Assembly (NCBI GenBank): GCA_024276825.1
Contig: JAJRWI010000033.1
Span: forward strand, 32,001 to 96,000
Reading direction: 5' to 3'
Origin: an archaeon
Lineage (GTDB): Archaea > Asgardarchaeota > Thorarchaeia > Thorarchaeales > Thorarchaeaceae
Length of the DNA stretch: 64,000 nucleotides
Positions within the stretch are counted from its first letter, which is position 1. Each line of letters opens with the position of its first letter. The position numbers were made by a program, and so were the translations under genes. Below, in pieces: positions 7,087 to 28,499 of this stretch. A model generated the notes under the pieces. That model searched no databases. It had not been told where the DNA came from and saw only the letters and a list, made by a program, of their open reading frames with translations.

Positions 7087-8331
7087 TCAACACGACTCAG
7101 CAAATCGGATGATTACATCACGGACATTGTCAAAGTCCTTTACATCCAGCCACTCATCAATCCCATGGAAATTGGAGTCATCAGCAATAGTGCCATAACA
7201 AGCAGTTGGAATACCGACTGCTGTGAAAAAGTGCCCATCGTTTCCACCGAGATCTGCAGCAATCTGCAAGCTGGGATCGACAACCTCCTTTACAACGCCG
7301 TAGAAAGCCTTGATGAACTTGTTATCCCTGTCTGAGCCCCAGCCATGAACTTTGGTCTTTATCTCGAGGGTGGCATCAACGCCTGTGTCCTCCTTTACTT
7401 GATTTAGATAATTCTCTATGTCATTCACAACCTCATCGGGATTCTCCTCTGGGATTAAGCGGCAGTCAAAAGACACTTCAGCCTTTCCAGGGATTATATT
7501 GGTCTTACTGCCTGCTTTGAGGATTGTCATTGAAAAACGGCCCCAGAGGTTCTGAAATGGACATCCAGGAGGAGCAGGATATTCAGACATCACCTTCTTT
7601 CTGATGTCAATGTATCCCAACATGCCATCTAGAAGAGGAATGGCAAGATGAATGGCATTGGCAAACCTAAAGGGATATCCTGCATGGCCCTGCTGACCAT
7701 GAACGGTGATTGTTCCTCCTATAACTCCGCTCGCACCAACACTCACATAACCGGGACCACTGTCTGCGACAATTGCAAAATCACCCCTGATCTTCGGAGG
7801 ACCATTGATCAGATAGTCGATGCCCCATTCACCGCCTATCTCTTCATTGGGTGAGATCAGCAGCTTCATGTTGACTTTTGATTTTCCCTTCTCCGCAAGT
7901 GCTTTTGCTGCACTGACTGAAGCAACAAGATTGCCTTTGCAGTCTGTCACTCCACGACCATAGAGCTTGTCGCCTTCAATTGTCAGATCGAAGGGAGGTC
8001 GGGTCCAGGCATCAAAATCGCCAGCTGGTACAACATCATAATGTGTGCAGACTAGGACTGTTTCTGGTGCCCCAACATCAAGCGTTGCAACAATGTTCGG
8101 TTGAGGTTTGCCATCGTGCTTGGAGTCAAAGACCTCTACCTTTAGACCACCTTCTTTACAATACTTCTTAATCACTTCACTACATTCCATGTAGTTCTTC
8201 TTCTCTTCACTATTGGTGTCAAGCTGAATTATCTCGCGCAAGAACTGCTGTTCCCAATTGTCCATCAAATCTCGCCTCACTATTCCCTCTTGGTCGATGA
8301 CCATAATTAGTCTTTTCCAACGACAAAACAA
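7087..8331 (-). CDS. M20/ArgE-DapE family metallo-amidohydrolase
   Basis: HYDVVP, YGRGVTDCKG, NEEIGG, HGIDE. Confidence 0.92.
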   Translation of the reverse strand: MFCRWKRLIMVIDQEGIVRRDLMDNWEQQFLREIIQLDTNSEEKKNYMECSEVIKKYCKEGGLKVEVFDSKHDGKPQPNIVATLDVGAPETVLVCTHYDVVPAGDFDAWTRPPFDLTIEGDKLYGRGVTDCKGNLVASVSAAKALAEKGKSKVNMKLLISPNEEIGGEWGIDYLINGPPKIRGDFAIVADSGPGYVSVGASGVIGGTITVHGQQGHAGYPFRFANAIHLAIPLLDGMLGYIDIRKKVMSEYPAPPGCPFQNLWGRFSMTILKAGSKTNIIPGKAEVSFDCRLIPEENPDEVVNDIENYLNQVKEDTGVDATLEIKTKVHGWGSDRDNKFIKAFYGVVKEVVDPSLQIAADLGGNDGHFFTAVGIPTACYGTIADDSNFHGIDEWLDVKDFDNVRDVIIRFAESC

Positions 8332-12878: not shown

Positions 12879-12994
12879 GCCCGGATAGCCAAGCGGTTAC
12901 GGCGGCAGCCTGGAGACGCACACACATGGTGTGTCAGAACAGGCAGCTGCTCTCCCTTTGGGAGGCGCGAGTTCGATCCTCGCTCCGGGCGCCA
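12879..12994 (+). tRNA. tRNA-Ser(GGA) with a ~29-nt intron at 37/38 (12916-12944) and encoded CCA
   Basis: Acceptor GCCCGGA/TCCGGGC, anticodon stem GCAGC/GCTGC with CT-GGA-G, long variable arm CTCCC-TTT-GGGAG, T arm GCGAG-TTCGATC-CTCGC, discriminator G. Confidence 0.93.
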
Positions 12995-15082
12995 CGCCTC
13001 TTGCACCATATAATTAACTCATAAATTATTCGATATTTTGGGGGTACCAGTTTTATGTTTTAGAGTTTATAAGGGGGATGGTTTTAAAAATATAAATAAA
13101 ATTTGGGCAAAATTGGAACTCTGTAGATTTAATATTAAGCGTTATTATTACTTATTTTTCAAAATACAGGAGTTATAGAGTTTTTGCTTAATAAGTTTAA
13201 ATATTATCGCTAGTATAAAAATACGAGGTTAATAACGAAATGCGAAGAAACAAGGATGGTGAACTTAACAGCTAGAACAGGTCAGAAGTTTAAATATTCA
13301 GGTGAATAAAATGGCCAATACGATGGGCGTAGTCATAGCAGTGAAAGTACCAATAAAAACTGATAGAATGACTAAAAGAGCAAGACAACGATTACGACAA
13401 ATCGTTGGCCGAGACACCAGAACAATAAAAGCTCACTTGGGAGTAATTGAGCAGCATGAAAAGCAGCTAATTATTGGAAGGAGAAAAACAAGGATAAACG
13501 AGTCATTATTGCACGAGTTGACTTTGACAGCAATTTATGTGAAGAAAGGAGCATCCCAAAGGCTTTCAGTACTTCATGATTTGAAACAGAGATTCCAGAG
13601 AATTTCGCAAAATGAACTAGCAGAGTGTCGACGCACCGCGATAGCAATATGGGAATCATATCTTGCTTTAAGAGAGAAGAGAGCAAGTGTATCTAGACCT
13701 ACAAGCAAAAACAGATCAGGAAGAATTCCCAGATGGATTTTCACTCAAAGGTTCAATTTGATTGAGGACAATAACTCAGCAGCACGATGGTGGTTGGATA
13801 TTCGTGATTCTTTAGACTCACGAAGATTGAATCGGAGAACACATAGACGATTGAGGATACCACTATCAATCTCACCAATCCATCTTGAACAATTGTCAAA
13901 AGGAAAAATCAAGGCAATTCAGATATTCACAAAGGATGGAAAATGGTGGGTCACATTTTCAGTACAAATCGAATTTGAAAAACTTCCTGAAGAACTCAAG
14001 CCTCTAGCAGTATTGGGCATAGATCTAGGAATAAAGAAAACCATATGCAGTACACTCTTAACTGAGTCAAAAGTTTCTGAAACAAGATATTTCAAGCAAG
14101 ATGAAAAAATAGCCTTGATGGAAAAGTATGACCGACTGGTTTCTTCATTGCAAATTCAGAGAGATAATCATTCTAGTGAAGGTGTAATTCAACGATTGAA
14201 GGCAATTCGTCGAAAGAGACAGCGAGTTTCAATTGAGTATGACAGACTAATCGTTCATCAGCTTCTTGAGTATATTGCTGAGCTTGAAAAAAAATATACA
14301 TTGTACATAGCCATTGGGAAGGTATTTGGGATTCGTAATACTGCAAAACGTGGAAATAGGAGAGGTAAAAGATTCCGAGGAATGATTCATAGATGGACAT
14401 TTCGAAGAGTCACAAATATGATAAAGCATAGTTTAGCACAAAGAGGATGGGTTACAGAAGGCAAGGATTCCAGAATTATCCTTGTTCACGAGGCATGGAC
14501 AAGTATTATTTGTTGGAAATGTGGTCACAAGGGTCGTCGTCCAAAGCAGTCACTCTTTATATGCCCCCATTGTGGATTTAAAACAAATGCGGATCGAAAT
14601 GGCTCGTTAAATATTGCTCGGCGCTCCATTAGGCTCATTCGTCACTTGAATGAGAGTGGACTAGGGCGTTGGTCGTCTCCAGAGAGAGGGACAGCCCCGA
14701 AAGCCCAAGGGAAAATTTCTCGAGGGAAGTCTACACTCCCCAAGAGACCACCAATCTTGATGAAAGGGGAGTCCGCGGTTGTTCGCAGTGTCCAAATGGA
14801 CCTTTTCAGTTTTTGTGAGAAAACTGATTTGAGCGATCATGACCCTGCCGTGGAAAAAGCCGTGGAAAATCTTACTGCTGTTGAAAGTGATGTTTCAACA
14901 TCAAAGCAGAAGAAGGAAGCCAGGTCTATGGGAGGAATGCCATTCCAATGATAATAGACAAAGTCCTTGCTAACTCTATATTTGCAGTATGGAGAGTGGT
15001 GACACTTGGCAGGGAAAGGGTGGAACACGGAAGTCTGAAGTTGAGTTCACTCATCTAATTGACAGGTCAGCTCGCTCCGGGC
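12979..15082 (+). mobile_element. AT-rich, tRNA-adjacent segment carrying only tnpB, bounded by the 12-bp direct repeat CTCGCTCCGGGC
   Basis: Repeat at 12979-12990 (tRNA 3' end) and 15071-15082; 13000-13300 is visibly more AT-rich than flanking genes. Confidence 0.5.
13302..14951 (+). CDS. tnpB: TnpB-family RNA-guided endonuclease (large, rearranged RuvC-II); no adjacent transposase
   Basis: RuvC-I LGIDLG; RuvC-II position AIGKV with alternative Glu in VHEAWTS; Zn ribbon CWKC..CPHC; RuvC-III NADRNGSLNI; ~110-aa C-terminal tail. Confidence 0.9.
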   Translation: MNKMANTMGVVIAVKVPIKTDRMTKRARQRLRQIVGRDTRTIKAHLGVIEQHEKQLIIGRRKTRINESLLHELTLTAIYVKKGASQRLSVLHDLKQRFQRISQNELAECRRTAIAIWESYLALREKRASVSRPTSKNRSGRIPRWIFTQRFNLIEDNNSAARWWLDIRDSLDSRRLNRRTHRRLRIPLSISPIHLEQLSKGKIKAIQIFTKDGKWWVTFSVQIEFEKLPEELKPLAVLGIDLGIKKTICSTLLTESKVSETRYFKQDEKIALMEKYDRLVSSLQIQRDNHSSEGVIQRLKAIRRKRQRVSIEYDRLIVHQLLEYIAELEKKYTLYIAIGKVFGIRNTAKRGNRRGKRFRGMIHRWTFRRVTNMIKHSLAQRGWVTEGKDSRIILVHEAWTSIICWKCGHKGRRPKQSLFICPHCGFKTNADRNGSLNIARRSIRLIRHLNESGLGRWSSPERGTAPKAQGKISRGKSTLPKRPPILMKGESAVVRSVQMDLFSFCEKTDLSDHDPAVEKAVENLTAVESDVSTSKQKKEARSMGGMPFQ

Positions 15083-15096
15083 ACATTTAGTGGTCG
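14789..15096 (+). ncRNA. Putative TnpB guide (omega/re) RNA overlapping the tnpB 3' end; 5' boundary uncertain
   Basis: Position typical of omegaRNA; collinear conserved blocks and compensatory stems shared with 27028-27309; T-rich tract follows at ~15100. Confidence 0.65.
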
Positions 15097-15308
15097 GAGT
15101 CTTTCTTTTTCTCAAGTCATCAAGCAAGGAGTTTAGTCATTAGTTCTGACATTCCATCCAAATTCGGTTTATATGTCATAGTGACTGAATGAATATACCA
15201 TAACATAGCAGATATATTATGTAACCAGAAGTACGAACTAATTGGTCTTTGATTTTTATGCAAGGACTAAGACATTGTGCATGATGATCCGTATGAGGAA
15301 TAAGACAG

Positions 15309-16238
15309 ATGATCCATACCACAATCCTGATGAGACGAAAGAGCAAGAGAACTGTTGCCACATCTAGGTACTGGACTGTAAAGATTCCACGGAAGGATGT
15401 GCTCGAGTACATAAAGGCTAGAGAGAAGCTTCAGGAGGTTTCAGATGGGCGAGAAGACATCTCACTCACCATTAATGGAAACAAGTATTTCAGTCGTATA
15501 TGTAATGAGAAATTATTGCTGATATTTATCACAGACATAGATGAGAAGGACCGTCTGATCAACCAGAAGATAGAAGCTGCTGCAAAGGGACTAGACGGCA
15601 CTCTGAAAGAGCGTAATATCGCCTATGTGAAGGAAAATTATGAGAAGATAGTCGCACCATTTGTGCATTCGAAATTGAAGATCGCACTTGTTGGAGAGGG
15701 AGGAGTGGGAAAGACAACAACATTGCACCTACTCATGGGTAAGAAACCACCAAGACAATATGTTCCTACTATCGCACTGAATCTGGAGGTCATGGAAACC
15801 ATATATTTTGCAAACTACTCATTGGTGATTTGGGATTTTGCAGGACAAGAGAGATTCCGTAAGCTGTGGAAGTTCTATTTCAAGGGAGCAGATATTGTAT
15901 TCCTGCTGACAGACTCTACACTACGAAATGTGCTACTGTCAAAGGATATGTTCACCATTATCAGGCGTGATGCGCCTAATGTCCCAATAATTGTGATTGC
16001 CAACAAACAGGATCTACCTAATGCACTTGATCCCTCGATAATCCGTAGAATCATAGGGGCTGAAACCTACCCGCTTGTCGCAATTGATCTTGCATATCGC
16101 GAGAAGATACTAAAGATACTTCTTGATGCCGCAGCAGAGCATGTGAAGATCACAGTGCCCGATGTACCTCCAGAGGAGTTACTGCGTTTTGTAGATGATG
16201 AGTATTTGTCGGAGGAATCGGAGGCTGCAGAGGCATGA
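15309..16238 (+). CDS. Longin-like domain fused to an Arf/Rab-like small GTPase
   Basis: GEGGVGKT, WDFAGQERFRKLW, IANKQDL; N-terminal ~115 aa has a longin-like beta/alpha pattern. Confidence 0.85.
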   Translation: MIHTTILMRRKSKRTVATSRYWTVKIPRKDVLEYIKAREKLQEVSDGREDISLTINGNKYFSRICNEKLLLIFITDIDEKDRLINQKIEAAAKGLDGTLKERNIAYVKENYEKIVAPFVHSKLKIALVGEGGVGKTTTLHLLMGKKPPRQYVPTIALNLEVMETIYFANYSLVIWDFAGQERFRKLWKFYFKGADIVFLLTDSTLRNVLLSKDMFTIIRRDAPNVPIIVIANKQDLPNALDPSIIRRIIGAETYPLVAIDLAYREKILKILLDAAAEHVKITVPDVPPEELLRFVDDEYLSEESEAAEA

Positions 16239-16423
16239 ATAGGTATCTTGTGAAATATTCATAAGAGATTGTAGTTAAATAATCCTGTTCAACTCAGTTG
16301 TTTGCCGAGGAATACGATCAGTGTGCCATCCCACGAGGGGTGAAGAGATTCCTATGGCAAGTATTATAAGGTAAATTCTTGAGGCGAACAAAGCCTCGTT
16401 CATTCAGACTGAGGTTATTTACC

Positions 16424-16873
16424 ATGTCCGAGCAAGAATACAAACACATAGTGAGAATAGCTGGCCATGACATTAACGGCCAGGAGAACCTCCTTCAGGG
16501 GCTCACAAAGATCAAGGGAGTTGGCATTAGGCTCTCAAAGGCCATACTGCATCAGCTTCAACTGGACCCGTATCAAAGGTTAGGCTTCATTTCAGAGGAT
16601 GTCATTTCAAAGATAGAAGACCTGCTTAAAGATCCTGTCACCCATAAGTTTCCTGAGTGGTATGTAAACAGGCCTCGCGACAGACACACAGGTAGGATGA
16701 TTCATCTCATTGGCTCGGACCTGGAGTTTGTACATCGTAATGACATTGATAGACTCAAACGCATAAGATCATGGCGTGGAATCAGACACTCCTTGGGATT
16801 GAAGGTGAGAGGACAACATACTAGGACCACAGGACGCGCAGGTATGGCTGTGGGAGTGTCTAGGAAGAAATAA
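16424..16873 (+). CDS. rps13: 30S ribosomal protein S13 (uS13)
   Basis: IVRIAG, IKGVG, RGIRHSLGLKVRGQHTRTTGR. Confidence 0.97.
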   Translation: MSEQEYKHIVRIAGHDINGQENLLQGLTKIKGVGIRLSKAILHQLQLDPYQRLGFISEDVISKIEDLLKDPVTHKFPEWYVNRPRDRHTGRMIHLIGSDLEFVHRNDIDRLKRIRSWRGIRHSLGLKVRGQHTRTTGRAGMAVGVSRKK

Positions 16874-16889
16874 TGTTGAGGAATGAGTT

Positions 16890-17525
16890 ATGGGAGATCC
16901 AAAACGTCCAAAGAAAAAATACGTGACTCCGAAGCGTCCATTCGATAGCGATCGCTTTGTACAGGAACTTCAATTTGTTGGTACCTACGGACTGAGAAAC
17001 AAGCGTGAGCTGTGGCGACACAGAACAGAACTCTCACGTTTCAGAAGACAGGCTCGACACCTACTTGCTCTGCCCCCAGCGGAACGTGAGAAACAGGAGA
17101 AGGAGCTCGTCAATAAGCTTGTGAGAATGGGAATTCTGACATCGGAGCCAACATTGGACAGTGTACTGGATCTCACACTGGAAGACATCCTCGAACGACG
17201 CCTGCAGACTGTTGTCTTCAGAAAGGGACTTGCATGTTCTATGTATCACGCTAGACAATTAGTTGTCCACGGTCATATTGCATTAGACGGCGCAAGGGTA
17301 ACTACTCCCAGCAGAATCATTACTATTGCTGAAGAGGAGAGGATAGGATACACCTCAAAATCACCCTTGAATGATGAGTCACACCCTGCTAGGATAGCAG
17401 CATCCACTGTTGCACAACGTGTCATTGAGGCGGCAGAAATAGCAGCAGCAAAAGCAGCATCAAAGACTGCAGAGGGCGGCGAAAATATCGAGCTCTTGGA
17501 GCCACCAGAGGACATTGATGCGTGA
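16890..17525 (+). CDS. rps4: 30S ribosomal protein S4 (uS4)
   Basis: MGDPKRPKK, YGLRNKRELW, LERRLQT, ARQLVVHGHI. Confidence 0.97.
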   Translation: MGDPKRPKKKYVTPKRPFDSDRFVQELQFVGTYGLRNKRELWRHRTELSRFRRQARHLLALPPAEREKQEKELVNKLVRMGILTSEPTLDSVLDLTLEDILERRLQTVVFRKGLACSMYHARQLVVHGHIALDGARVTTPSRIITIAEEERIGYTSKSPLNDESHPARIAASTVAQRVIEAAEIAAAKAASKTAEGGENIELLEPPEDIDA

Positions 17526-17541
17526 TAATGAGGTGAAATAG

Positions 17542-17946
17542 ATGAGTAAGAAAGACACCAAGAGAGACAAATGGGGAATCGCTCACATTTATGCATCATA
17601 CAACGATTCAATCATTCATATTACGGACATCACGGGTGCTGAAACAATCGCACGCTATTCAGGTGGTATGATGGTCAAGGCTGACCGTAATGAGTCATCC
17701 CCACATGCTGCAATGCAGGCGGCATTCCAAGCTGCTCGCGAGGCAAAAGACAAAGGGATCTATGGAATCCATATTAGGGTCAGAGCACCTGGCGGTCATG
17801 GACCAAAGACACCTGGACCGGGAGCACAGGCTGCAATTCGTGCTCTGAGCCGTGCAGGACTTAGAATTGGCATCATTGATGAGGTCACACCCATGCCCCA
17901 TGATGGCACACGTAAGCCGGGTGGAAGAAGAGGTCGTAGAGTATAA
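17542..17946 (+). CDS. rps11: 30S ribosomal protein S11 (uS11)
   Basis: [29 protein letters not shown]. Confidence 0.97.
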
Positions 17947-19296
17947 TCACACCACCGGCCGACCGCGGCCGGACCAGACTACCTCCATTTTGTATTGTAT
18001 TCCTTTATTGGTCTTGTTTTGGCGCTCAACAGGACGTGTTAGATGTCTCTGAGCTGAAAGGACAGGCAAGTATCGCCCGGGCCTTATATCACGCTCTCTC
18101 AATACACGAGTCTTTTTGGCATTGGGATCTTTATGTCCGCAGCGCACGCACTTGAAACCTTTCCCAAGACCAGCACTCTTCATTCGTTTGCCACATTTTG
18201 AACAAACTGGGTTCATATCATCATAGACCTCCGCAATTTTAATTATCTCAAGGCCTTCAACATTCAGTGTCAGCCCATGAGTGCGTGATGCAGGTCTCAC
18301 GCCAGCATCGATAATCACAATGTCGTCCTTGCAAAGTTTTTGGACAACATGACGGAATGAGCCAGTGGGCTCGTATGCCGCACAGTCGATGGTCCCAGTC
18401 GTATCACTGATGGAGAAGAACACATGCCCCCCTTCAGTCATTCTTGGGGCTGAATGAACCGCACCCTTCACGCGGGCCGACATATATGGTCTGAGGTCTT
18501 TGACCATAATGTGATGTGTCAAGTGCTGATCTGTGCCTTGATTTGTCCTGAATACTGTCCAACGGTCAATCTTCTGATGGGCCCTCACAAGTGATGCTGC
18601 TTTTATCACATCCTCTGCATTCTCACCGCGGATACCAAACAGTACAGGATCTGGACCGTGAGGCTCAATCAGTATATGTCCGTTTTCGGGGTCGATATTA
18701 GAGAACAGTAGTTCGGAGAACTTTCTGTCCATCTCAATGACAGATGTCGGATCAACACCGCGTTCCTCGTCGCATTCATCGGGATGACGGTAGGCCAGAA
18801 ACTCGAATGTGTAGTCGCCCTTCAGCATGTTGCCCACAGAGGAGAGTGCGCCGATGAGCCCACGTTCATTGCCAGAAGCCATGGACCAGATCCCAAATCT
18901 CTTGATCAACCGCCTTGCAATAGAGATTGTCATTGCACGCCATAATGTGTGCATAGAGAAATCGACAATCGCTGGTGGCAAACTATCAGTCAGAACAACA
19001 ATTCCCGGGTTGGTGTTTGGATAGTCATGCTGGACATATAGATGCAGCTGATGTTCCAAGAGTTCATCGATATGTTCAATGTTCTCACATCTTGTCTTGA
19101 AGCGTAGTGCGACAGCACCATTCCCACGAGTCCTGTAGGGTATATTCGGATTCAGACGTATTAGATTCGGAAAGTCCAGCCATTCAACATCAAGGTGAGA
19201 TAGCTCTTCAATAAGAATAGATGCAAAGTGTGTTGTGCAGCTCCCACGCGGACTGTCTATGTCATCCATTCCAATATGAACAATCGTATCGCTCAT
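17947..19296 (-). CDS. tiaS: tRNA(Ile2) agmatinylcytidine synthetase
   Basis: IGMDDIDS..SCTT, RLNPNIPYRTRGNGAV, RTNQGTD, AYEPTG, Zn ribbon, RHLTRP. Confidence 0.95.
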   Translation of the reverse strand: MSDTIVHIGMDDIDSPRGSCTTHFASILIEELSHLDVEWLDFPNLIRLNPNIPYRTRGNGAVALRFKTRCENIEHIDELLEHQLHLYVQHDYPNTNPGIVVLTDSLPPAIVDFSMHTLWRAMTISIARRLIKRFGIWSMASGNERGLIGALSSVGNMLKGDYTFEFLAYRHPDECDEERGVDPTSVIEMDRKFSELLFSNIDPENGHILIEPHGPDPVLFGIRGENAEDVIKAASLVRAHQKIDRWTVFRTNQGTDQHLTHHIMVKDLRPYMSARVKGAVHSAPRMTEGGHVFFSISDTTGTIDCAAYEPTGSFRHVVQKLCKDDIVIIDAGVRPASRTHGLTLNVEGLEIIKIAEVYDDMNPVCSKCGKRMKSAGLGKGFKCVRCGHKDPNAKKTRVLRERDIRPGRYLPVLSAQRHLTRPVERQNKTNKGIQYKMEVVWSGRGRPVV

Positions 19297-19562
19297 AATA
19301 ATCCAGTCCTGCATTCATCGCATAGGGTTGCTGCATTAACTCGTGTGCCATGGTCTTCACAGACCAGACGCCCGCAGCGATCACAGGCGCGTGAGGACAA
19401 GAACTCGCCACATATCTGGCATTTTGCCTCCACGCATGACAAACAGAGACCATCTTCATTGAAACAGTCATCACAAATATGCGAGCCGCACATTCTACAC
19501 GCATGCAGCTGTCCTTGTGATGCACCGCATAGTTCACATTTGTCATGATCTCTGTCATTCAT
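19293..19562 (-). CDS. Small Cys-rich multi-zinc-finger protein
   Basis: Repeated CxxC pairs in two similar halves; overlaps the tiaS start. Confidence 0.7.
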   Translation of the reverse strand: MNDRDHDKCELCGASQGQLHACRMCGSHICDDCFNEDGLCLSCVEAKCQICGEFLSSRACDRCGRLVCEDHGTRVNAATLCDECRTGLL

Positions 19563-19623
19563 GATTGTATCAATCCAGAGAGCATGACAAAGCTGAAATC
19601 TGTCTTTTGGTTGCTCTTAATCA

Positions 19624-20163
19624 ATGCCAGTCATAAAAACAGACAGACCTCGCATCATAATCTTTCATGCCTCTCAGTGTGATCCAAAGAAATGTACAGG
19701 CATAAGGCTTCAGAGAATGCATAGAGCCACCATCATTAAGGATTTCAGACGAGTCCCAAGGAGGGCGGTGGTGCTTAACCCAATATCGCGTCATGCCCTG
19801 TCGCCGCTAGACCGAGAGCATGCCCTGCGTTCAGGTCTCGTCGCACTTGACTGCTCGTGGAAGCTTGCAGAGGGCCTCTTTAGATCGACAAGGTCTGGCG
19901 AACAACGTGCACTCCCCTATTTGCTGGCAGCCAATCCCATCAACACCTACAAGCCAATCAAACTCTCAACCGCAGAAGCAATTGCCGCGGCACTGTATAT
20001 CATGGGGTTTCCAGACGATGCAGAAGACATCATGTCAGTCTTCAAATGGGGCCCCTCTTTTATCACCCTGAACAGGGAGTGGCTGAATTCATATGCCGCC
20101 TGCTCTTCAAGCACCGAGGTCGTTCAAGTTCAGGATGAGATTATGAAGGAGCATCAGAGCTGA
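19624..20163 (+). CDS. tsr3: rRNA aminocarboxypropyltransferase Tsr3
   Basis: QCDPKKCTG, LDCSW, RALPYLLAANPIN, KLSTAEA, FKWG. Confidence 0.95.
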   Translation: MPVIKTDRPRIIIFHASQCDPKKCTGIRLQRMHRATIIKDFRRVPRRAVVLNPISRHALSPLDREHALRSGLVALDCSWKLAEGLFRSTRSGEQRALPYLLAANPINTYKPIKLSTAEAIAAALYIMGFPDDAEDIMSVFKWGPSFITLNREWLNSYAACSSSTEVVQVQDEIMKEHQS

Positions 20164-20180
20164 TTGCATAACAAGAAGTA

Positions 20181-20526
20181 GCCCTGGTGCAGGGAGTAGC
20201 CCCAATTTTGTTCGGTCATCCCCCGTCACCAGGAGATGACTTTACGACATCAGACTATGCCCCCTACCCTCCACCTCGGGCCGACACTTCATTGGTGGAT
20301 TCTTGGGGTTGCTACCCGGTGATGGACCGTTTCAACCCGGCCAGACCACTACTCAGCAGCTTGAGTGCTGCATCATCGCTTGGCATGATCTGGAGGTGTC
20401 GTTTCTGTTTCCAGAGCAAGGCTCTCACCTTCCTGCTCTCGCAGGACCGGCGTCGGCATGTAGTTGGGAGCTTCCTCAGCTCCAGTCGAGTGACCGGTAC
20501 CGTCAGTCGTGCTCCTGCTCCAGGGC
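20181..20526 (-). ncRNA. rnpB: RNase P RNA
   Basis: Minus strand: P1 GCCCTGGAGCAGG/CCTGCACCAGGGC, CR-I GAGGAAGCTCC, CR-II ACAGAAA, CR-III TGAAAC, CR-V AACAAAATTGGGGCTA. Confidence 0.92.
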
Positions 20527-20579
20527 CATTAAAGAGTAAGCAAGAACCATTAAGAACTTCTCGATGTGGCGTGGCAGAG

Positions 20580-21611
20580 TTATTTTTCCTTTTTCTTCCA
20601 CATCGGTGGATAACGCCCTCGTTCCATGAAGACTCGTTCTGTCTTTGCAATGATTCCACTAGATATCTTTGCAATACGTTCACTTGTTTCCAAGGCCTTA
20701 GCGACCGCTATGGCCTCACCCTTTAGTGTCTTTATCACGACCAAGTCGTTCTTCTTTATCCCACTGCTTAAACTCACAACGCCATTAGCAGCCAAGTCAG
20801 CACCATGGCATATCGCATCGACCGCACTGTCACGAACATTGAGTTCCGGCAGGTGTTGGAGGGCAAATTCGATGGGTAGGAGATACTTCCGGAGCTCGGA
20901 CTCATCACCATCTTCTTTCCAGAAGTGATAGGCATCCTTCAGATCATAGAGAGAACATAGATAGTTGTTATCCTCCTTGAAGGGACCAACTCTGGTCCTC
21001 CTGAGTTCCCTCATGTTACCCCCAACACCAACTGCCTCACCAACATCGAAGCAGAGTTTCCGGATGTATGTCCCTGCTTGGCACCCCACACGAAACAGAA
21101 CAAGACGACCCTTAATCTCGAGTATGTCAATGTAGTAGATGGTCCTGACCCTGAGAACTCGTTTCACTGAGGACCTCAATGGGGGTCGCTGGTATATCTT
21201 GCCCACAAACTCAAACATCACCTCTCTTATCGTGTCCTCATTGACCCGTTCATGCAGCTCGAGAACGCAGACATATTCTTTTCCTGCAGGGAGTAATGCC
21301 TGCATCACCTTTGTGGCATTCTCAATCCCCATGGGTAGTACTCCAGTGACCCCAGGATCTAGTGTGCCCCCATGCCCCACACGTTTTGTGCCAAGAATTC
21401 TCCTGACCCAGGTAGCTACCTCATGGCTTGTCGGACCAGCAGGCTTGTCAAGGCAGAGGACAGAGTTCTTCATCAGATATTCTATGGGAAGATTGCTCAA
21501 ATCGCTGAAGCCAAATTCGGGATTAGTAGTATCATGTGTTCTTATGATTAGTTCTCTGGGTCTGTCCGAGGGGAGAATGGAAGGCACTGTGATCCCCCAT
21601 CTGTGATTCAC
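20580..21611 (-). CDS. cbf5: H/ACA pseudouridine synthase Cbf5
   Basis: DKPAGPTSHEV, GHGGTLDP, QRPPLRSSVKR, PUA domain. Confidence 0.96.
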   Translation of the reverse strand: MNHRWGITVPSILPSDRPRELIIRTHDTTNPEFGFSDLSNLPIEYLMKNSVLCLDKPAGPTSHEVATWVRRILGTKRVGHGGTLDPGVTGVLPMGIENATKVMQALLPAGKEYVCVLELHERVNEDTIREVMFEFVGKIYQRPPLRSSVKRVLRVRTIYYIDILEIKGRLVLFRVGCQAGTYIRKLCFDVGEAVGVGGNMRELRRTRVGPFKEDNNYLCSLYDLKDAYHFWKEDGDESELRKYLLPIEFALQHLPELNVRDSAVDAICHGADLAANGVVSLSSGIKKNDLVVIKTLKGEAIAVAKALETSERIAKISSGIIAKTERVFMERGRYPPMWKKKEK

Positions 21612-21627
21612 AAGAGGAGACTGTTGC

Positions 21628-21909
21628 TCACTCGCTCAATCGAATCTTCGTCCTGAAGGTCTCTTCGAGGCCAGCCTCTTTGAGTGCCTTCTCCACAGAG
21701 TTGTCATCAGCGCCCTCTTTTATCGGGAGTGTTTTGTCAATGGGTTCAATATGACGAGTATTGACACGTCTTCGTCTGACACCACTGATATGCTTTGGGC
21801 CAGTGACGACAACGTACTTGCCATTCATCTTCTCTACAATAACACAGTAACTTCCAGCCTCTCGGCCCATGGTCTTAACACAGACTCTTCCAACTTCGAA
21901 TAATCTCAT
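21628..21909 (-). CDS. rpl14e: 50S ribosomal protein L14e
   Basis: EVGRVCVKTMGREAG, VRRRRVNTRHIEP. Confidence 0.95.
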   Translation of the reverse strand: MRLFEVGRVCVKTMGREAGSYCVIVEKMNGKYVVVTGPKHISGVRRRRVNTRHIEPIDKTLPIKEGADDNSVEKALKEAGLEETFRTKIRLSE

Positions 21910-22046
21910 ATTTTTACACCTCAACTCAACCGCAGTCAAACTGAACCAGCAAGTCACCTCAATGGCTCATCCTTTGGTAGTGAGAATGAGGTGTTCTCAG
22001 GCACTTTCAATATAGATATTCCGATTGGACGAGAACTCTGCAAGTA

Positions 22047-22607
22047 TTATGAGTCTGGCACCTTCTGCTCAAAGAATGTTTCAAGGGCAATGATCACAAT
22101 CCGCACTACACCCTCAAGGTCAAAAAGTTCTGTATTAATGATGAGGTCATAGATTGTCAGATCAGTGATGTCAATGTCATAAAACCGCTTGTATCGCTCG
22201 CGTTCACTTGCTTCACGCACAGTGGTTTCACGAAGAGCGTCTTCATATTGCACATCATCGCGACCTGCTATTCTCATTACCCGGACCTCCATCGGCGCGA
22301 CCAGCAGTATCTTAAAGTCAGCATGCTCTCCCGCCATCCATGCTGAGAGTTGCCCGTCAATTACAACATTGCCCTTGCTAGCTTCAGTCCTGAGTCGCTC
22401 ATCCAGTTCTCTGTCAATCTCATCATTCTCCTGTGCAATCTTACTGAACTCCTCAAGGCTGTATCCGCGTTCTCTAGCAATAGCCCTAAAAATCATCCCT
22501 GCAGAAACCCTTCTTAGACCAAAGTGCTGGGCAATCCTGTCAGCTACGGAACTCTTGCCTGTGCCATGTAGTCCGCTGATTGTGACTGTGCGTGGCATAA
22601 TATTCAC
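22047..22607 (-). CDS. cmk: Cytidylate kinase
   Basis: ISGLHGTGKS, SAGMIFR, YDLIINT; conserved gene order. Confidence 0.93.
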   Translation of the reverse strand: MNIMPRTVTISGLHGTGKSSVADRIAQHFGLRRVSAGMIFRAIARERGYSLEEFSKIAQENDEIDRELDERLRTEASKGNVVIDGQLSAWMAGEHADFKILLVAPMEVRVMRIAGRDDVQYEDALRETTVREASERERYKRFYDIDITDLTIYDLIINTELFDLEGVVRIVIIALETFFEQKVPDS

Positions 22608-22691
22608 TCGTCAATAATTCCAACTTAAGAATTTAGTCATCAACCAATACTACTCAATCTACAGGTGAGCTGGGAAATGGCAGACTACAGT

Positions 22692-22961
22692 TTACAGTGC
22701 TCGGACCTTTCTGATGATACCACGCCTAACTGCTCTGGGACTAAGTTTTCCGCCATAGGGGCGATTAGGTCTCTTTGACGAACGGCTTGCCTTTCGATTC
22801 AGGCCATGCTTTGCCCTCTTGGGCAGGGATATCCTCGAGCCGGTTTCTGGACAGACACCTTCGGCCCGGTAATACTTCTGACGGTGCATAACAAGGCGTC
22901 CACCTGGGGTCTTCACTAGTCTGTTTGCTCTTCCTCTTGTCAGTTGTCCCGGTCGAGGCAT
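22692..22961 (-). CDS. rpl34e: 50S ribosomal protein L34e
   Basis: VKTPGG, KRPNRPYGG. Confidence 0.93.
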   Translation of the reverse strand: MPRPGQLTRGRANRLVKTPGGRLVMHRQKYYRAEGVCPETGSRISLPKRAKHGLNRKASRSSKRPNRPYGGKLSPRAVRRGIIRKVRAL

Positions 22962-23030
22962 TTACATCAACTCATCTCTATTGTTCTTACTGGACTCGGA
23001 ATGATTCTCTTTTAAGGAAAGCGGTAAGTG

Positions 23031-23603
23031 TCATGTCATTATCTGGACACCTTGTATCCTCTGAAGTATCTGACCAAGGCCAAGACCTACCAGAAAATAG
23101 AATGGCCAGAACCAGAGACCAAACCCACCAGACACAGGTACTCCTATGAAGCCCTCAAGGAAGGGGAGCAATTTGTGCACATTGAATGGGATTATGGCAA
23201 CAATAGTATCGCTGAGTCCCGTTGGAGACGATGGATTGACATATGTATAGAAGGTCCGCAACCATGAGAACACCAGCACAAATGGTATGAAGAAGAACAT
23301 CATTGGCTTGCAACGAGCGGTGAGCATCTCTCGCTGAATACGATCAATGTAGGGCTTTCGTCTCTTAACCTTTCTGAGGAGTTTCTCATTGCCTGTTTCG
23401 TTTGCCTTTTTCTGTAGTGCCTGAAACTGCTTGATTTCAACCTGATAACGGCGTAGTCTTCGTATGTCCGAGAATCGCTTCATAGCAAGATTGCTGATGC
23501 TAGATATCGTCAACGACACCAATACGACAAATACTGTTGCGCCAGGAGGCTGCTTGATTGCATCCATCAACCAGATAAAGAACAGTGTGACGATATCCTG
23601 CAT
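23031..23603 (-). CDS. DUF106 / EMC3-TMCO1 (Oxa1 superfamily) membrane insertase
   Basis: TM, coiled coil, KPM motif, further TMs; conserved position between adk and L34e. Confidence 0.85.
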   Translation of the reverse strand: MQDIVTLFFIWLMDAIKQPPGATVFVVLVSLTISSISNLAMKRFSDIRRLRRYQVEIKQFQALQKKANETGNEKLLRKVKRRKPYIDRIQREMLTARCKPMMFFFIPFVLVFSWLRTFYTYVNPSSPTGLSDTIVAIIPFNVHKLLPFLEGFIGVPVSGGFGLWFWPFYFLVGLGLGQILQRIQGVQIMT

Positions 23604-23609
23604 GTTTTT

Positions 23610-24215
23610 TCACTCCATGATTGATTCAGCAAGTTGTGCTGCTGCCTCTTCTACTTTGCCCTCCCTGTTTAATATCCTTCGGACAGTGGCTCCTGTGAGG
23701 GTGCCAGCCGCAGCCGCAGCGGCCCGACACATCTCCTGATGAATTCTAATCTCGTCAGTCATTTGTTCGTCTCGTGCGCGGGTTTCATCGGATGCTCTTC
23801 TGCTCGCAATGTTCTCGGGATTTGCCTCAACAAGTATGATTGTCTTTGGCTGAATTGCCTTTACAACCCATTCAGGAAGACCTATCAGATAACCATTCTT
23901 TGTGAGGATGAGTGTATGAGTGTCAACAATTACACGAGTGCTCTTGCTCTTCTCAGCAATTGATTCTCCAGCAATCCTCTGGATCTCCCTCTGCTGTGCA
24001 GTAGGCATCTTTCGCATCTCATCACGGTCCTTCACAAGACCTCTTTTTGATGCCACCTCAAACATCTCGGTACCAAAGTTTAGGACCAGCACATCCTCGC
24101 CATGCCTCTCCTTGACTATCTCAACGGCGGTGTTGATCACAGTGGTCTTTCCAACTCCAGGGATTCCTGTGACAATGACTACATTTCTTGGCTCACTCAT
24201 TATGCCTGTCTCCAT
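23610..24215 (-). CDS. adkA: Archaeal adenylate kinase
   Basis: TGIPGVGKTT, NFG, RDEMRK, VDTH, GLP. Confidence 0.95.
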   Translation of the reverse strand: METGIMSEPRNVVIVTGIPGVGKTTVINTAVEIVKERHGEDVLVLNFGTEMFEVASKRGLVKDRDEMRKMPTAQQREIQRIAGESIAEKSKSTRVIVDTHTLILTKNGYLIGLPEWVVKAIQPKTIILVEANPENIASRRASDETRARDEQMTDEIRIHQEMCRAAAAAAGTLTGATVRRILNREGKVEEAAAQLAESIME

Positions 24216-24431
24216 GAAACTAACGAGATTTGTTCAATTCCATCCTGAGCGCTTTATATGTCATTCTGTTGAACCGACTTGCCATTGTGTGTAATCGTTC
24301 TCTCCAAATAGTGCCCCTGCATCGCTTTCTGTAAGATTGGCCAATAAACTCCTTCTGAATTACCTGGTCTAAACTCTAGACTAATGTAAAAATGTGGGAT
24401 ATGTTATTTTGATTGAGATGACCAAATACTA

Positions 24432-26245
24432 ATGACCCAGAAGACCAATCCCTCTGGCATGTCATATATAGGCAGATCGTGGTTGGAGTGCTCATCGCAT
24501 TGTTCATCGGATCTGCAATTATTCTTATCACTCCACAGAACTTCGTGTTTGGCTCCGTTTCAGAGGGTGACGAGGTATCGAGAACAACTGGCCATTCTCT
24601 CCATGACCTTGGACTTGCAGGAGATGATATTTTCACGCTCCTCGATACCTCGAACCTCACCTCCAGAGCTGGCTGGCTAACAAAAGTCACACTGGACAAT
24701 GATTATGGAGTAAATGCCATGCAAGAGATCAATGGGCTGAACATAGACGGTGCTGGAGCATGGATTAATCTCTATTATTACTTAAACATCAATGTTGAAG
24801 ACTATGACACACTCAACTTCACTCTGTCAGTAGAGTCTGTTCAGGACGAGTTCATTCTTGAAATGAACGCCTACTTTAGACTATTATGGTTGGGCTCCTT
24901 AAAGGCGGAGAACAGGACGAATATTGAACATGCTGGCCAACAAACACTCACCTTGAATGTATCTATGGACTGGCTTCGAAACAGCACCAGTAGTTGGATT
25001 ACTCAAGTGCGTTTTGAGATCTGGCTTCATCTAGAAACCTATTCTTCTCCGGTCATAAGACATGCTACTGCAACTGCATCATCTTCAAGACTCCTTTTCC
25101 CCCTCCTGATCGACTTTCAAGACCTCTCTGAGAACAGCATCTACGACCAACCCGAAACACGCTATCTCATAAGGGATCCCCTCATCAACATCACTAGTAT
25201 CTCTGGCAATGAAACAGGACTTCTCATACAGTGGACTAATAATGAACTGATATTCCTGCCTTCTGGAAACTATTCAATCAGCTATGGCTGGCTCAAGTTG
25301 CACATTTACAACTCCAAGACTCATATGAACTATACACATGTCGACTCTTTCGCATTGACTCTGGATGCAGCTGGGAGATTTATGGAAATACGCCCTCCAA
25401 TAACACGAATTGACCTCGATATCAATGAGGGCATTCTGTTCAGCATTTTCTTCGAAGATCCCTATTCTTCATCAATTGATTTCATCTATTACATCAACAA
25501 CTATGTGGCACATTCTAAATCAGCGTTCTATATCCCTGACATGTATGCCACAATACGGGTTGAGATCACACTCAAAATACCTCAATATCCCTCTCTCGCA
25601 AGGACTATTGATATTGATGAGTCCCATGACTTGATACTTCATTCTCGATTCCCTTATCACCCTGTCCTTGATCTTTTAGTTTCATTCCATGTGAGTCTTC
25701 GAAAGGCAATGAAACCATTCGCTCCAACAGGTTGGACTTGCAGAGAACGCCTTCTGCCAACATTATTGATGTTCATAAGCTACATACTTCCCTGGGCAGC
25801 CTCTGAACAGGTGGTTTCCAGCAACATTGGTGTGATCAATTTCTCGAGAATCTACTTCCTTCCCGCTGGTATTGAGATTCTGAAAAACGAACAAGGATCC
25901 GCTATTGCTTCTATTCTAGGTATCAGCAATCCATAGTCAGACTCGCCTCTCAACATCTGGGACATGTTCGGTCTGATTTCCGTTGTGGCAATGCTTTTTT
26001 GAATACCTATACTGATAATGCTTGTCAACCTGCTTAACGGCTCGTCAATTGACTCTGGACTGACAACGCTTCTCTCATTTGGAACTCCTGGAACAGCTGC
26101 TATTCTGACTGCAGTTTCCTTTGCAAGTTTCATTGTTCTCTATGGTGTGATACCTACAATCCTCTCATTTGCCATTGTCATCTGGAGGTCCTTGGCCCAG
26201 ACAAAGAAATTGAAGACTCTCCACAAGAAACTGAGCCGCAACTGA
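24432..26245 (+). pseudogene. Disrupted gene for a membrane-anchored extracellular protein
   Basis: Probable frameshift between ATG 24432 and the 24479 frame; in-frame TAG 25934-25936 and TGA 26000-26002 interrupt a hydrophobic C-terminus that continues in frame to 26245. Confidence 0.6.
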
Positions 26246-26282
26246 GGTGCAATCATTTATGTCATTACACGCTATCAAGTAG

Positions 26283-26894
26283 TTGATGATGATGAACAAG
26301 ATTGACTTCAAGAAAACCCTCAAGGAACTCTATCTGCCTCCAAGGAGGCCCGTGCTCGTGGATGTTCCCGAGATGCAGTTCCTCATGATCGACGGTGCAG
26401 GACCGCCCGAGAATGAAGAGTACCAGTCCGCCATTCAGATTCTCTATGGGGTCTCATTTCCTATGAAGTTCAAGCTCAAAAAAGCTGGTGTTGTGGACTA
26501 TACGGTCCCCCCTCTTGAAGGCCTTTGGTGGGTTGAGGCCTCTGACACCTTTGACATCTCTCAGCGTGATGATTGGCGATGGACTGCAATGATAATGCAG
26601 CCAGAACAGGTCACACAAGACCTCGTCATTGAAACAATCGAGGAGGTCGAAGAGAAAAAGGGAATTGAGATTCAAAACCGCCTGCGACTGGAAACATTTC
26701 ATGAGGGGCGCTCAGCACAGATCATGCACATTGGCCCTTACAGTGCTGAAGGACCGACTATCCAGAAACTCCACGACTTCATTGAGGCTGAAGGTCTCTC
26801 ACCTAGGGGAAAACATCATGAGATATACCTCAGTGATCCTCGCCGTGCCGCTCCTGATAGACTTAAGACTGTGATTAGACAGCCAGTTTCATAG
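26283..26894 (+). CDS. GyrI-like small-molecule-binding domain protein (likely start ATG 26292)
   Basis: KIDFKK..LY, PLEGLWW, HIGPY..E, HHEIYLSDPRR, KTVIRQP. Confidence 0.9.
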   Translation: MMMMNKIDFKKTLKELYLPPRRPVLVDVPEMQFLMIDGAGPPENEEYQSAIQILYGVSFPMKFKLKKAGVVDYTVPPLEGLWWVEASDTFDISQRDDWRWTAMIMQPEQVTQDLVIETIEEVEEKKGIEIQNRLRLETFHEGRSAQIMHIGPYSAEGPTIQKLHDFIEAEGLSPRGKHHEIYLSDPRRAAPDRLKTVIRQPVS

Positions 26895-26939
26895 TTGGAT
26901 AGCAATCAAAAGAACATCTAATGATATACAGTAAAATTG

Positions 26940-26954
26940 AGGGGGGGTTAAATA
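26940..26954 (+). promoter_or_regulatory. Putative BRE/TATA promoter for the stand-alone RNA
   Basis: Purine run followed by TTAAATA (26948-26954), with no + strand gene downstream. Confidence 0.5.
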
Positions 26955-26955
26955 G

Positions 26956-27309
26956 TCTCATCAGAGATCAAAGTCTGAAATGTGCCCAGTGCCATTCCTG
27001 GGTGGACGGGACTGAGATGTCCAAGAATGTCCAATTTACAATGAACGGCACAGACAATATGAAACCACCCTGTGTGAGCACGACGACCCCGCCGTGGTAG
27101 GAAATGCAGAAACCCCCATTGTGTCTGAATATAATGCGACCGGGACAACATAGGGAGAAGGAGGCCAGGTCCCTGTTCATGAGTACAAAGCCCCTGCGAA
27201 CACCGATGTTTCGGTGGGTGGTGACATCTGCAGGGGAAGGGCTGAACGCATGAGTCCTGTTCAGACGAGTTCATCAAGTGACAAGTCTGAACAAGATTAG
27301 GTTGTCGGA
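26956..27309 (+). ncRNA. Stand-alone homologue of the tnpB 3' (omega-like) RNA
   Basis: Blocks GACCCCGCCGTGG (27085), AGAAGGAGGCCAGGTC (27156), ACAAAGCCCCTGC (27185), GTGGTGACA (27218), GAGTTCA (27267), TGACAAGTC (27279) and GTCGGA are collinear with 14841-15096. Confidence 0.75.
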
Positions 27310-27359: not shown

Positions 27360-28499
27360 CTAGATACACCTGTGTATGACTTCAGGGCCCGCTTCCTCGA
27401 ACTCCTTGCGAGTCACCCACATCTTCTGGAATGTCTTAAGTGACGCGATGATGGAGCCGCCAATCCAGACGCTGTACTGGCGTTCTGGTGGAGCGATGAT
27501 GCGGACCTCGATGTTTTCGGGTACGAGTTCGGTGATCTCCTTGTGGAGTCTCTCCTTGAGGCCTGGGAACATAGTGGAGCCTCCTGAGAGGACGATGTTT
27601 GCGTAGAGATCACGTCGCAGGTCGACATCACAGTCCTTGATTGCCTGAACGATGTGTTCGTCGAGTGGGACGGTGTCGAGTCCAATGGCACTGGGGTTGA
27701 AGAACAATTCAGGTGCCTGGAACCTCTCTGCGCCTACAGTGATGACCTCACCATCGGGCATCATATAGGGTCTGTCGACGCCTGCCTTGTCAGCGACGGT
27801 CTGCTCTCTCTCGGGGTCAAGAGCCACGTAGCAGAGTTTCTCCTTGATGTCTCTGACGATCTCTTTCTCAGCACCGCTGACGAAGCTCTTACCTCTCTGA
27901 CGCAGGAGTCTTCGGAGGTACTCGGTAATATCGCGTCCTGCGAGATCGATTCTCTTGATAGCGTGGGAGATAGCGAACCCCTCATAGATGGGTACGATGT
28001 GAGTAACACCATCACCAGAGTCAATGACCAGGCCAGTGGTTCTTCCTGACGCATATAGCGACATGACTGCCTGGGTAGCAACATACACTGCAGGCACATT
28101 GAACTGATCAAACATCACAGAGGCCATACGTTCTCTATTTTCTCTTGGGTTGTACGGTGCCTCAGTCAATAGGACTGGGTTCTCGCTGGGGTCAACCTTG
28201 AGGTCGTTATAAAAAGTGTAAGACCAAATCTTCTCAATTGCGTCCCAGTCGTCAATCTTTCCATGTGTGATTGGATAGACGAGCTTCAAAACACCTCTGA
28301 GATTGATGGCCTCCTCACCGATATAGTAATCACGTGTGTAGTGATCAACATCAGTCATAATGCTCTCATAACGTGGATAACCAATCAGTGTGGGCCATAC
28401 GGACCGGGGCTGGTCTTCACCTGCATAGCCATTTTTGCTAAGCCCTGTACCATTGTCAATGACTACAGGCTTCGCAGCTAGAAATTCATCTTCAGCCAT
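27360..28499 (-). CDS. Actin (Lokiactin-type)
   Basis: [64 protein letters not shown]. Confidence 0.97.

Follow-up and report, generated by a model that had tools for sequence, protein, structure and literature searches.

Why should the end of a guide RNA repeat the end of a neighbouring host gene? The question is raised by a 64,000-nt stretch of DNA (the window; contig C24:32001-96000 of a 2.94-Mb Asgard-type archaeal genome) in which a gene for the RNA-guided nuclease TnpB, together with its omegaRNA region (copy 1), lies beside a tRNA-Ser(GGA) gene, and a second omegaRNA-like copy, with no tnpB gene, lies 12 kb from the RNA region of the first (copy 2). An earlier sequence-only reading of the window had proposed that both RNAs carry a variable segment matching a nearby host locus, CTCGCTCCGGGC (12 nt) at the tRNA-Ser 3′ end for copy 1 and TGAACAAGATT (11 nt) at the start of a GyrI-like gene for copy 2. 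The letters and coordinates of both matches were correct. The relation to a host locus held for copy 1; in copy 2 the segment turned out to be a conserved loop and its match a chance one. On balance we favour a reading in which a degenerate Asgard 'Cas1-homologue plus TnpB' (casposon-like) element integrated at the tRNA-Ser(GGA) 3′ end, with copy 1 as its TnpB/omegaRNA part and with its target duplication read as a guide, and in which copy 2 is a nuclease-less element with a coincidental GyrI match.

The 12-mer CTCGCTCCGGGC stands at 12979-12990, inside the tRNA-Ser(GGA) gene, and again at 15071-15082. These are its only two occurrences in the genome, and they are 2.1 kb apart. In an anchored test the copy-1 locus was the only one above the null (12 nt against a null maximum of 10 nt in 758 pairs). 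The match is far above chance. A single 12-nt match found by eye might have been a coincidence, as in copy 2, but with two genomic occurrences, a length beyond the null and a pattern that recurs throughout the family, we give this explanation almost no credence.

We aligned the 3′ regions of 28 loci, namely 27 homologues from related genomes and the window's own. The loci share the core GGAACAC / ...GGAACACAGAAGT..GTTCACTCA..(8-25 nt)..A.AGGTCA[G/T], and nothing common lies beyond it. In the window, the omegaRNA scaffold defined by this alignment overlaps the 3′ end of tnpB (14836-15070, + strand; the 5′ limit is approximate), holds the motif GTTCACTCA, present in nearly all homologues, at 15045-15053 and terminates in GACAGGTCAG (15061-15070), where the element has its right end. 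The 12-mer begins at the base directly after the scaffold's last conserved base. Because the scaffold stops at 15070, the 12-mer constitutes positions 1-12 of an ordinary 3′ guide (15071-15090, + strand), whose first 12 nt are the right copy of the tRNA-Ser repeat. As judged from the alignment, a scaffold is followed by a locus-specific guide, as in other TnpB/OMEGA systems.

The sequence-only reading had seen conserved TTAG..GTCGGA resume after the segment of copy 1, which might then have been a hairpin apex and either an unusual internal guide or a coincidence. An internal-loop reading, also suggested by the first alignment of copy 1 with copy 2, was dropped after aligning the true orthologues: similarity stops at 15070 in the 27 homologues, and the segment is no hairpin apex. 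The apparent resumption was an artefact in which GACAGGTC of copy 1 had been aligned with GACAAGTC of copy 2, whereas its correct partner is the terminal TTAGGTTGTCGG of copy 2; the register was wrong because the divergent copy-2 family has an extra terminal hairpin. A strong hairpin can also be folded in copy 1 between GCTCCGGGCAC and GTGGTCGGAGT, but it sits in the non-conserved flank and was given no weight.

The tnpB gene of the window (13311-14951, + strand; 546 aa; Pfam PF07282, E 4.9e-12) is the only copy in the genome. Its product aligned with the TnpB of PDB entry 9nzp (E 2.9e-11), with GIDLG and NADRN in register, and with Cas12f structures. It has the RuvC-I motif GIDLG (D at residue 238), the RuvC-III motif NADRN and a CxxC..CxxC zinc ribbon, while the canonical RuvC-II Glu is replaced (IAIGK) and a candidate alternative Glu is found in VHEAWTS. 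Homologues (~340, 45-58% identity) occurred in 57 of the 87 genomes of its order that were searched, the window's genome included. The RuvC-I Asp was kept in 78 and the RuvC-III Asp in 80 of 84 intact homologues, and the zinc ribbon was likewise present in 78-80 of them. We conclude that the protein belongs to the rearranged RuvC-II type known from the literature and is probably an active nuclease; binding without cutting at 12-nt matches is possible. Since both Asp residues and the zinc ribbon are kept, it does not resemble the dead nuclease TldR, which the sequence-only reading had invoked.

Copy 2 (about 27061-27308, + strand) is a nuclease-less element of the omegaRNA type. It resembles its paralogues up to 27308; from 27309 onward comes the true variable flank (or guide). 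The segment noted earlier, TGAACAAGATT at 27288-27298, is the conserved loop of a terminal hairpin (27280-27306) of the form GACAAG-TCTGA-ACAAGA-TTAGG-TTGTC. This loop is identical letter for letter in five copies, and elsewhere paired changes preserve the hairpin; similarity between copies stops just past AGGTYGTCAG. A scaffold-core search of the genome revealed at least 11 elements of this kind, none of them adjoining tnpB (C4:71965, C7:44717, C12:168, C12:14290, C24:28117, C24:59218, C28:74926, C28:82420, C28:84924, C35:56104 and C67:16255), and these fall into two subfamilies. No flanking repeats of 9 nt or longer were found around the copy-2 family. Of the 11 genomic occurrences of the 11-mer, five are the same loop in paralogous elements and six lie outside elements. 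That one of six such non-element 11-mers should fall less than 1 kb from any of five copies is unremarkable, and the match at 26293-26303 (+ strand), at the start of the GyrI-like gene (26292-26894; Pfam GyrI-like), is due to chance. Only copy 2 has a local 11-nt match; the other four copies with the identical loop reach no more than 9 nt. The scaffold of the genome's single, divergent tnpB is only ~75% like those of the 11 TnpB-less elements.

Taken together, these results bear on the proposal that both RNAs hold an internal variable guide within conserved sequence and bind nearby host loci in the manner of TldR, beside a GAT or YGAT motif. Both matches do exist, and regulation through short seeds is known for TldR, a relative of TnpB. 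Yet the copy-2 segment is invariant in five paralogues and lies within a hairpin, nothing is conserved after the copy-1 segment in 27 homologues, the catalytic Asp residues are kept and the 5′ flanks of the tRNA targets share no GAT motif. We consider this proposal highly improbable.

The sequence-only reading had suggested testing whether the segment co-varies with a local target across homologous loci, and such co-variation was found. We compared the first 12 nt of each guide, allowing at most one mismatch, with the 40 tRNA genes of the window's genome as a proxy set; control 12-mers were taken 150-350 nt further downstream. Fragments of tRNA were recognized in 26 of 61 guides and in 5 of 305 controls. 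They derive from either strand and from many positions of the tRNA, and a tRNA gene was present in 13 of 30 loci of 4.6 kb. A second, independent case is that of two loci (L018 and L026) with an upstream tRNA-Val gene, in which the guide agrees at 12 positions with the 16 nt that close this tRNA, from just past the T-loop to CCA; this is the same register as in the window. Further local targets are tRNA-Tyr in L140, a Glu-type tRNA in L046 and tRNA-Gly in L049 and L138. No common motif that could serve as a transposon-adjacent motif (TAM) was found in the 5′ flanks of the tRNA protospacers, and neither orientation nor distance relative to the tRNA is fixed.

The guides of some elements are also repeated just beyond the far end. 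The left end could be resolved in 18 elements, that of the window and 17 complete relatives; seven of them have an exact repeat of at least 8 nt that is anchored within the first 5 nt of the guide, compared with 19 of 306 mismatched guide-locus pairs. The lengths of these exact repeats are 8, 8, 9, 12, 14, 22 and 33 nt; they include the 12 nt of the window, 14 nt of tRNA-Tyr (L140), 22 nt with a second block of 13 nt (L046) and 33 nt of tRNA-Gly (L049). Imperfect repeats were seen in L138, L130 and L050.

Several of these loci show further details. In L046 (1-180 versus 7813-7838) the functional tRNA at the left end has a 30-nt intron at position 22/23, exactly at the limit of guide identity, and the guide corresponds to the intron-less form of the tRNA; this may bear on the idea that tRNA introns protect against elements targeting tRNA genes. 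In L141 (10294-10345) and in the right flank of L028 we observed short arrays of degenerate right-end pieces (..AACAGGTCAG), ~30 nt apart, with a different tRNA-like fragment after every piece. Such arrays may have arisen by nested or tandem insertion, or may represent a rudimentary form of repeat-spacer organization. In L049 a right-end/omegaRNA remnant with a 47-nt partial tRNA-Gly (1000-1135) lies at the left border of a complete element whose right end abuts an intact tRNA-Gly gene, suggesting that one tRNA site was used repeatedly.

The window element itself sits at a site that is unoccupied in related genomes. The tRNA-Ser(GGA) gene (12879-12994, + strand; Rfam tRNA, 43 bits; aragorn -i at contig coordinates 44879-44994) has an intron and an encoded GCCA end, and ARAGORN detects it in intron mode only. 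The left copy of the 12-nt direct repeat (12979-12990, + strand) comprises the 3′ strand of the T-stem and the 3′ strand of the acceptor and is preceded by the T-loop TTCGATC (12972-12978). Between 12991 and 15070 only tnpB is encoded. An AT-rich, unstranded spacer (12995-13186) separates the tRNA gene from the conserved upstream region of tnpB; it gave no significant match in any fetched locus, nor could any likeness to intergenic DNA of the relatives be detected, and it may be a left remnant of the element. Downstream lies a gene for an Arf-family GTPase (15309-16238), which, like actin (27360-28499) and archaeal RNase P, is among the Asgard markers of the window. In three related genomes (G011, G031 and G007) tRNA-Ser(GGA) is followed after ~120-240 nt by the Arf GTPase gene, and in two more (G014 and G018) it is also found upstream of the Arf-gene match. 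None of these loci contains tnpB, and we therefore regard the window element as an insertion at tRNA-Ser. When the relatives' spacer between tRNA-Ser and the Arf gene was searched for relics of the element, no alignment scored better than shuffled controls. Metagenome and genome collections were also scanned by exact pattern for the tRNA-Ser allele in close strains, but returned only unrelated tRNAs sharing T-arm and acceptor.

What could have inserted the element? No Y1 TnpA gene (PF01797) was found in five genomes (G000, G011, G030, G042 and G082), although at least 16 tnpB matches were obtained in each of three of the four relatives among them. In most relatives a divergent open reading frame (ORF) of 1400-1800 aa lies upstream of tnpB (L046:346-5751(-), L047:456-5753(-), L049:1150-5733(-), L051:823-5733(-) and ~16 more). 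This giant ORF had no match in Pfam, NCBIfam, PDB sequences or, by features, the ESM Atlas. We modelled its N-terminal 470 residues, starting ~20 residues into the annotated ORF, with AlphaFold from a 20-sequence alignment (predicted local distance difference test, pLDDT, 72). All top Foldseek matches of the model were Cas1 proteins, but with weak E-values (0.025). Structural re-alignment of model residues 1-215 to the Cas1 catalytic domain recovered 31 Cas1/casposase entries with Z-scores of 12.3 to 7.5, led by 4n06_A (Z 12.3, root-mean-square deviation 3.8, 183 aligned) and including the casposase 6opm_B (Z 10.7), whereas the next unrelated entry scored 4.5. The Glu, His and Asp columns are invariant or nearly so. 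According to the model, the N-terminal ~215 residues of the giant ORF fold like a Cas1 integrase. A PD-(D/E)xK-like motif (..GRADLVL..IDLKTK.., residues ~400-445) follows the Cas1-like part, and Cys/His clusters are located near the C-terminus.

These data can be compared with what is expected of a classical genomic island, in which a tyrosine or serine integrase would have used the tRNA-Ser 3′ end as attachment site (attB), the 12-mer would be the attR core and tnpB would happen to lie at the edge of the island. A duplicated tRNA 3′ end is the textbook att signature, and repeats of 8 to 47 nt vary in length as att identity blocks do. Against this, there is no integrase within the 2.1-kb interval, the conserved partner of the relatives has a Cas1-like fold and not that of a tyrosine or serine recombinase, and in many independent loci the repeat begins at the very base after the omegaRNA end. 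We consider the island explanation improbable.

In the simplest reading, a Cas1-like integrase duplicates its target and the right copy, abutting the scaffold, becomes the guide. A stretch of 12 to 16 bp at the end of the tRNA gene, counting from the first base after the T-loop, would have been duplicated on integration, and the 12-nt repeat would be the resulting target-site duplication. Because the scaffold ends flush with the right terminus of the element at 15070, the duplicated tRNA segment would be transcribed as the first 12 nt of an ordinary guide. A tRNA-Ser site that is unoccupied, or has been vacated, would match the full guide, made up of the repeat and the right flank; the resident tRNA gene matches it over 12 nt only. 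By analogy with IS200/IS605 TnpB, the nuclease would then favour retention or homing of the element and spare the host tRNA. The window element would be a deletion derivative that has lost its integrase gene.

A second guide-like sequence lies in the leader of tnpB. A module resembling the 3′ part of the omegaRNA by alignment (13206-13285, + strand) contains the palindrome GGTGAACTT.. and ends, ~25 nt ahead of the tnpB start codon, in ACAGGTCAG (13277-13285), which is also found at the element's right end. Directly after its GGTCAG follows a 13-nt sequence (13286-13298, + strand) that is an exact copy of 13193-13205, 93 nt upstream. The upstream copy, the putative target (13187-13205, + strand), consists of CTTAAT (13187-13192) and a box resembling the B recognition element (BRE) and TATA box, AAGTTTAAATATT (13193-13205). 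The same pair was present in 64 of ~78 loci, with 9-15 nt of identity, never longer and always from position 1, and with the target 90-99 nt upstream (two outliers, 105 and 118 nt). The two copies co-vary between loci (50 distinct 12-mers). In the 64 loci the consensus C-T-T-[A/C]-A-T directly precedes the BRE/TATA-like box; it could be a TAM or a part of the promoter. The pair looks like a mini-guide aimed at the element's own promoter, which makes it a candidate for RNA-guided autorepression of tnpB. The loop GAACAAGA of the terminal hairpin of the TnpB-less elements recurs in the leader module of tnpB elements.

It is possible, and we suggest it tentatively, that Cas1-type integrase and TnpB form one system: the tRNA duplication becomes the guide, so that integration 'programmes' the enzyme against the unoccupied site, and the second, 9-15 nt leader guide shuts off the element's own promoter. 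Such a system would be a living analogue of the step that coupled a Cas1 integrase to a TnpB/Cas12 ancestor, and selection by it could have contributed to the frequent interruption of tRNA genes in Asgard archaea; the intron of L046 lies exactly at the limit of guide identity.

Several observations weigh against integration by a Cas1-like enzyme as the source of the guide. There is no Cas1 gene near the window element and no giant ORF in the window's genome, and the Pfam Cas1 model (PF01867) had no match in four related multi-copy genomes; as Cas1 is not recognized by sequence, the link to it rests on a predicted fold of pLDDT 72. Terminal inverted repeats were not seen at the junctions. The length of the repeat is not fixed, with values between 8 and 47 nt. 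In the window, the right copy runs on with ACAT, whereas tRNA-Ser ends in GCCA in all five relatives, which would require either a 16-bp duplication with a later change of the right copy or a GCCA supplied by the element. In L140 the intact tRNA extends 16 nt past the left repeat, and unrelated DNA follows the right repeat. If CTT[A/C]AT were the TAM, the tRNA-Ser flank TTCGATC would not fit it.

Two further observations against the preferred reading favour an alternative in which the guide is fixed and selected. Here, a vertically inherited TnpB family would keep guides of ~12-15 nt copied from tRNA genes for homing to tRNA loci, for excluding competing elements that use tRNA fragments as attachment sites, or for binding host tRNA genes without cutting. 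The first of these observations is that the first 10-14 nt of the guide are kept across genera in orthologous loci while the flank diverges (L032/L034, L078/L081, L039/L074 and L041/L043), which hints at selection on the guide and not at passive inheritance of a duplication. The second is that the guides of L141 and of L039/L127 are inverted copies of the neighbouring tRNA, incompatible with simple duplication; that of L039/L127 is antisense to the anticodon arm of tRNA-Leu(TAG) and matches the local gene at 11 of 14 positions. The spread of guide sources over many tRNA positions and both strands is also in line with this alternative, and homing of CRISPR-associated transposons (CASTs) to tRNA genes by short guides is established (PMC11656645). 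Moreover, the sampled paralogues within any one genome were all below the 88% identity threshold, so that transposition appears to be rare, although this result does not separate a carried guide from a target-derived one. On the other hand, the guides of paralogues in one genome differ from position 1, the direct repeats that 7 of 18 elements have flush with their far end fit an integration product, the tRNA protospacers have no common TAM and the orientation towards the tRNA varies. We therefore rate a fixed guide as rather unlikely and continue with the integration reading.

Cas12 descends from TnpB, and CRISPR spacers are integrated by Cas1. If the integration reading is true, the elements would show that integration and the choice of a guide can be naturally linked outside CRISPR. 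It would explain why these Asgard TnpB elements cluster at tRNA genes and would name tRNA 3′ ends and the element's own promoter as candidate targets. For the annotation of the window, there is one degenerate element at tRNA-Ser and one orphan guide-RNA element; regulation of the GyrI-like gene by them is unsupported.

The elements can be placed among known systems as follows. Insertion of IS200/IS605 elements takes place 3′ of a TAM and produces no target-site duplication. Like their TnpB (ISDra2-type OMEGA), that of the window combines a RuvC nuclease domain with a zinc ribbon, its scaffold extends over the 3′ end of the gene and the DNA immediately beyond the right end serves as the guide, which would match the empty site. 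Unlike in IS200/IS605, Y1 TnpA is absent from the five genomes, direct repeats of 8-33 nt flank 7 of 18 elements, the canonical RuvC-II Glu is missing and the window TnpB is larger (546 aa), with a long C-terminal tail.

Family 2 casposons insert at the 3′ ends of tRNA genes. The relatives recall casposons in a partner protein whose predicted fold is that of a Cas1 integrase and in putative duplications around the size of 13-14 bp. In contrast to casposons, no terminal inverted repeats were seen at the junctions, no PolB was found (no search aimed at it was made), the repeat length is variable and an RNA-guided nuclease is aboard for which the putative duplication would be the guide. Casposases produce target-site duplications of 13-14 bp (PMC8464041).

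CASTs of types V-K and I-F home by a delocalized CRISPR RNA (crRNA), with a short guide to a tRNA-proximal site (PMC11656645). They likewise use a relative of TnpB/Cas12 and a short guide to such a site and reside beside tRNA genes. Here, however, there are no Tn7 genes, the nuclease is probably active, the guide stands at the normal omegaRNA position, and orientation and distance to the tRNA vary. The likeness to TldR and to crRNA-like autoregulatory RNAs (tracr-L, CreR) is confined to the leader mini-guide, with its 9-15 nt of guide-target identity at a promoter. Unlike in TldR, the catalytic Asp residues are kept, and the 3′ guide matches a tRNA 3′ end and not the promoter of a host gene.

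The closest counterparts are the Cas1H-Asgard-1/2 groups, the Asgard aCas1-associated TnpB loci with the GTTCACTCA motif that are 'often flanked with repeats' (Altae-Tran et al. 2023, PNAS, PMC10691335). They agree with our elements in Asgard hosts, a rearranged RuvC-II, GTTCACTCA downstream of tnpB, flanking repeats and, in relatives, a partner predicted to fold like Cas1. They differ in that the window element has no Cas1-like gene and that the 1400-1800 aa partner of its relatives is not recognized as Cas1 by sequence. Guides of tRNA origin and a leader mini-guide are not mentioned for these loci (PMC10691335). That study places a possible guide upstream of GTTCACTCA, whereas here the variable segment is downstream, after A.AGGTCA[G/T], which relocates the guide in this group. 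The real feature of the locus is a tRNA-derived guide, in canonical position, in a family of TnpB elements that are probably of Cas1 type.

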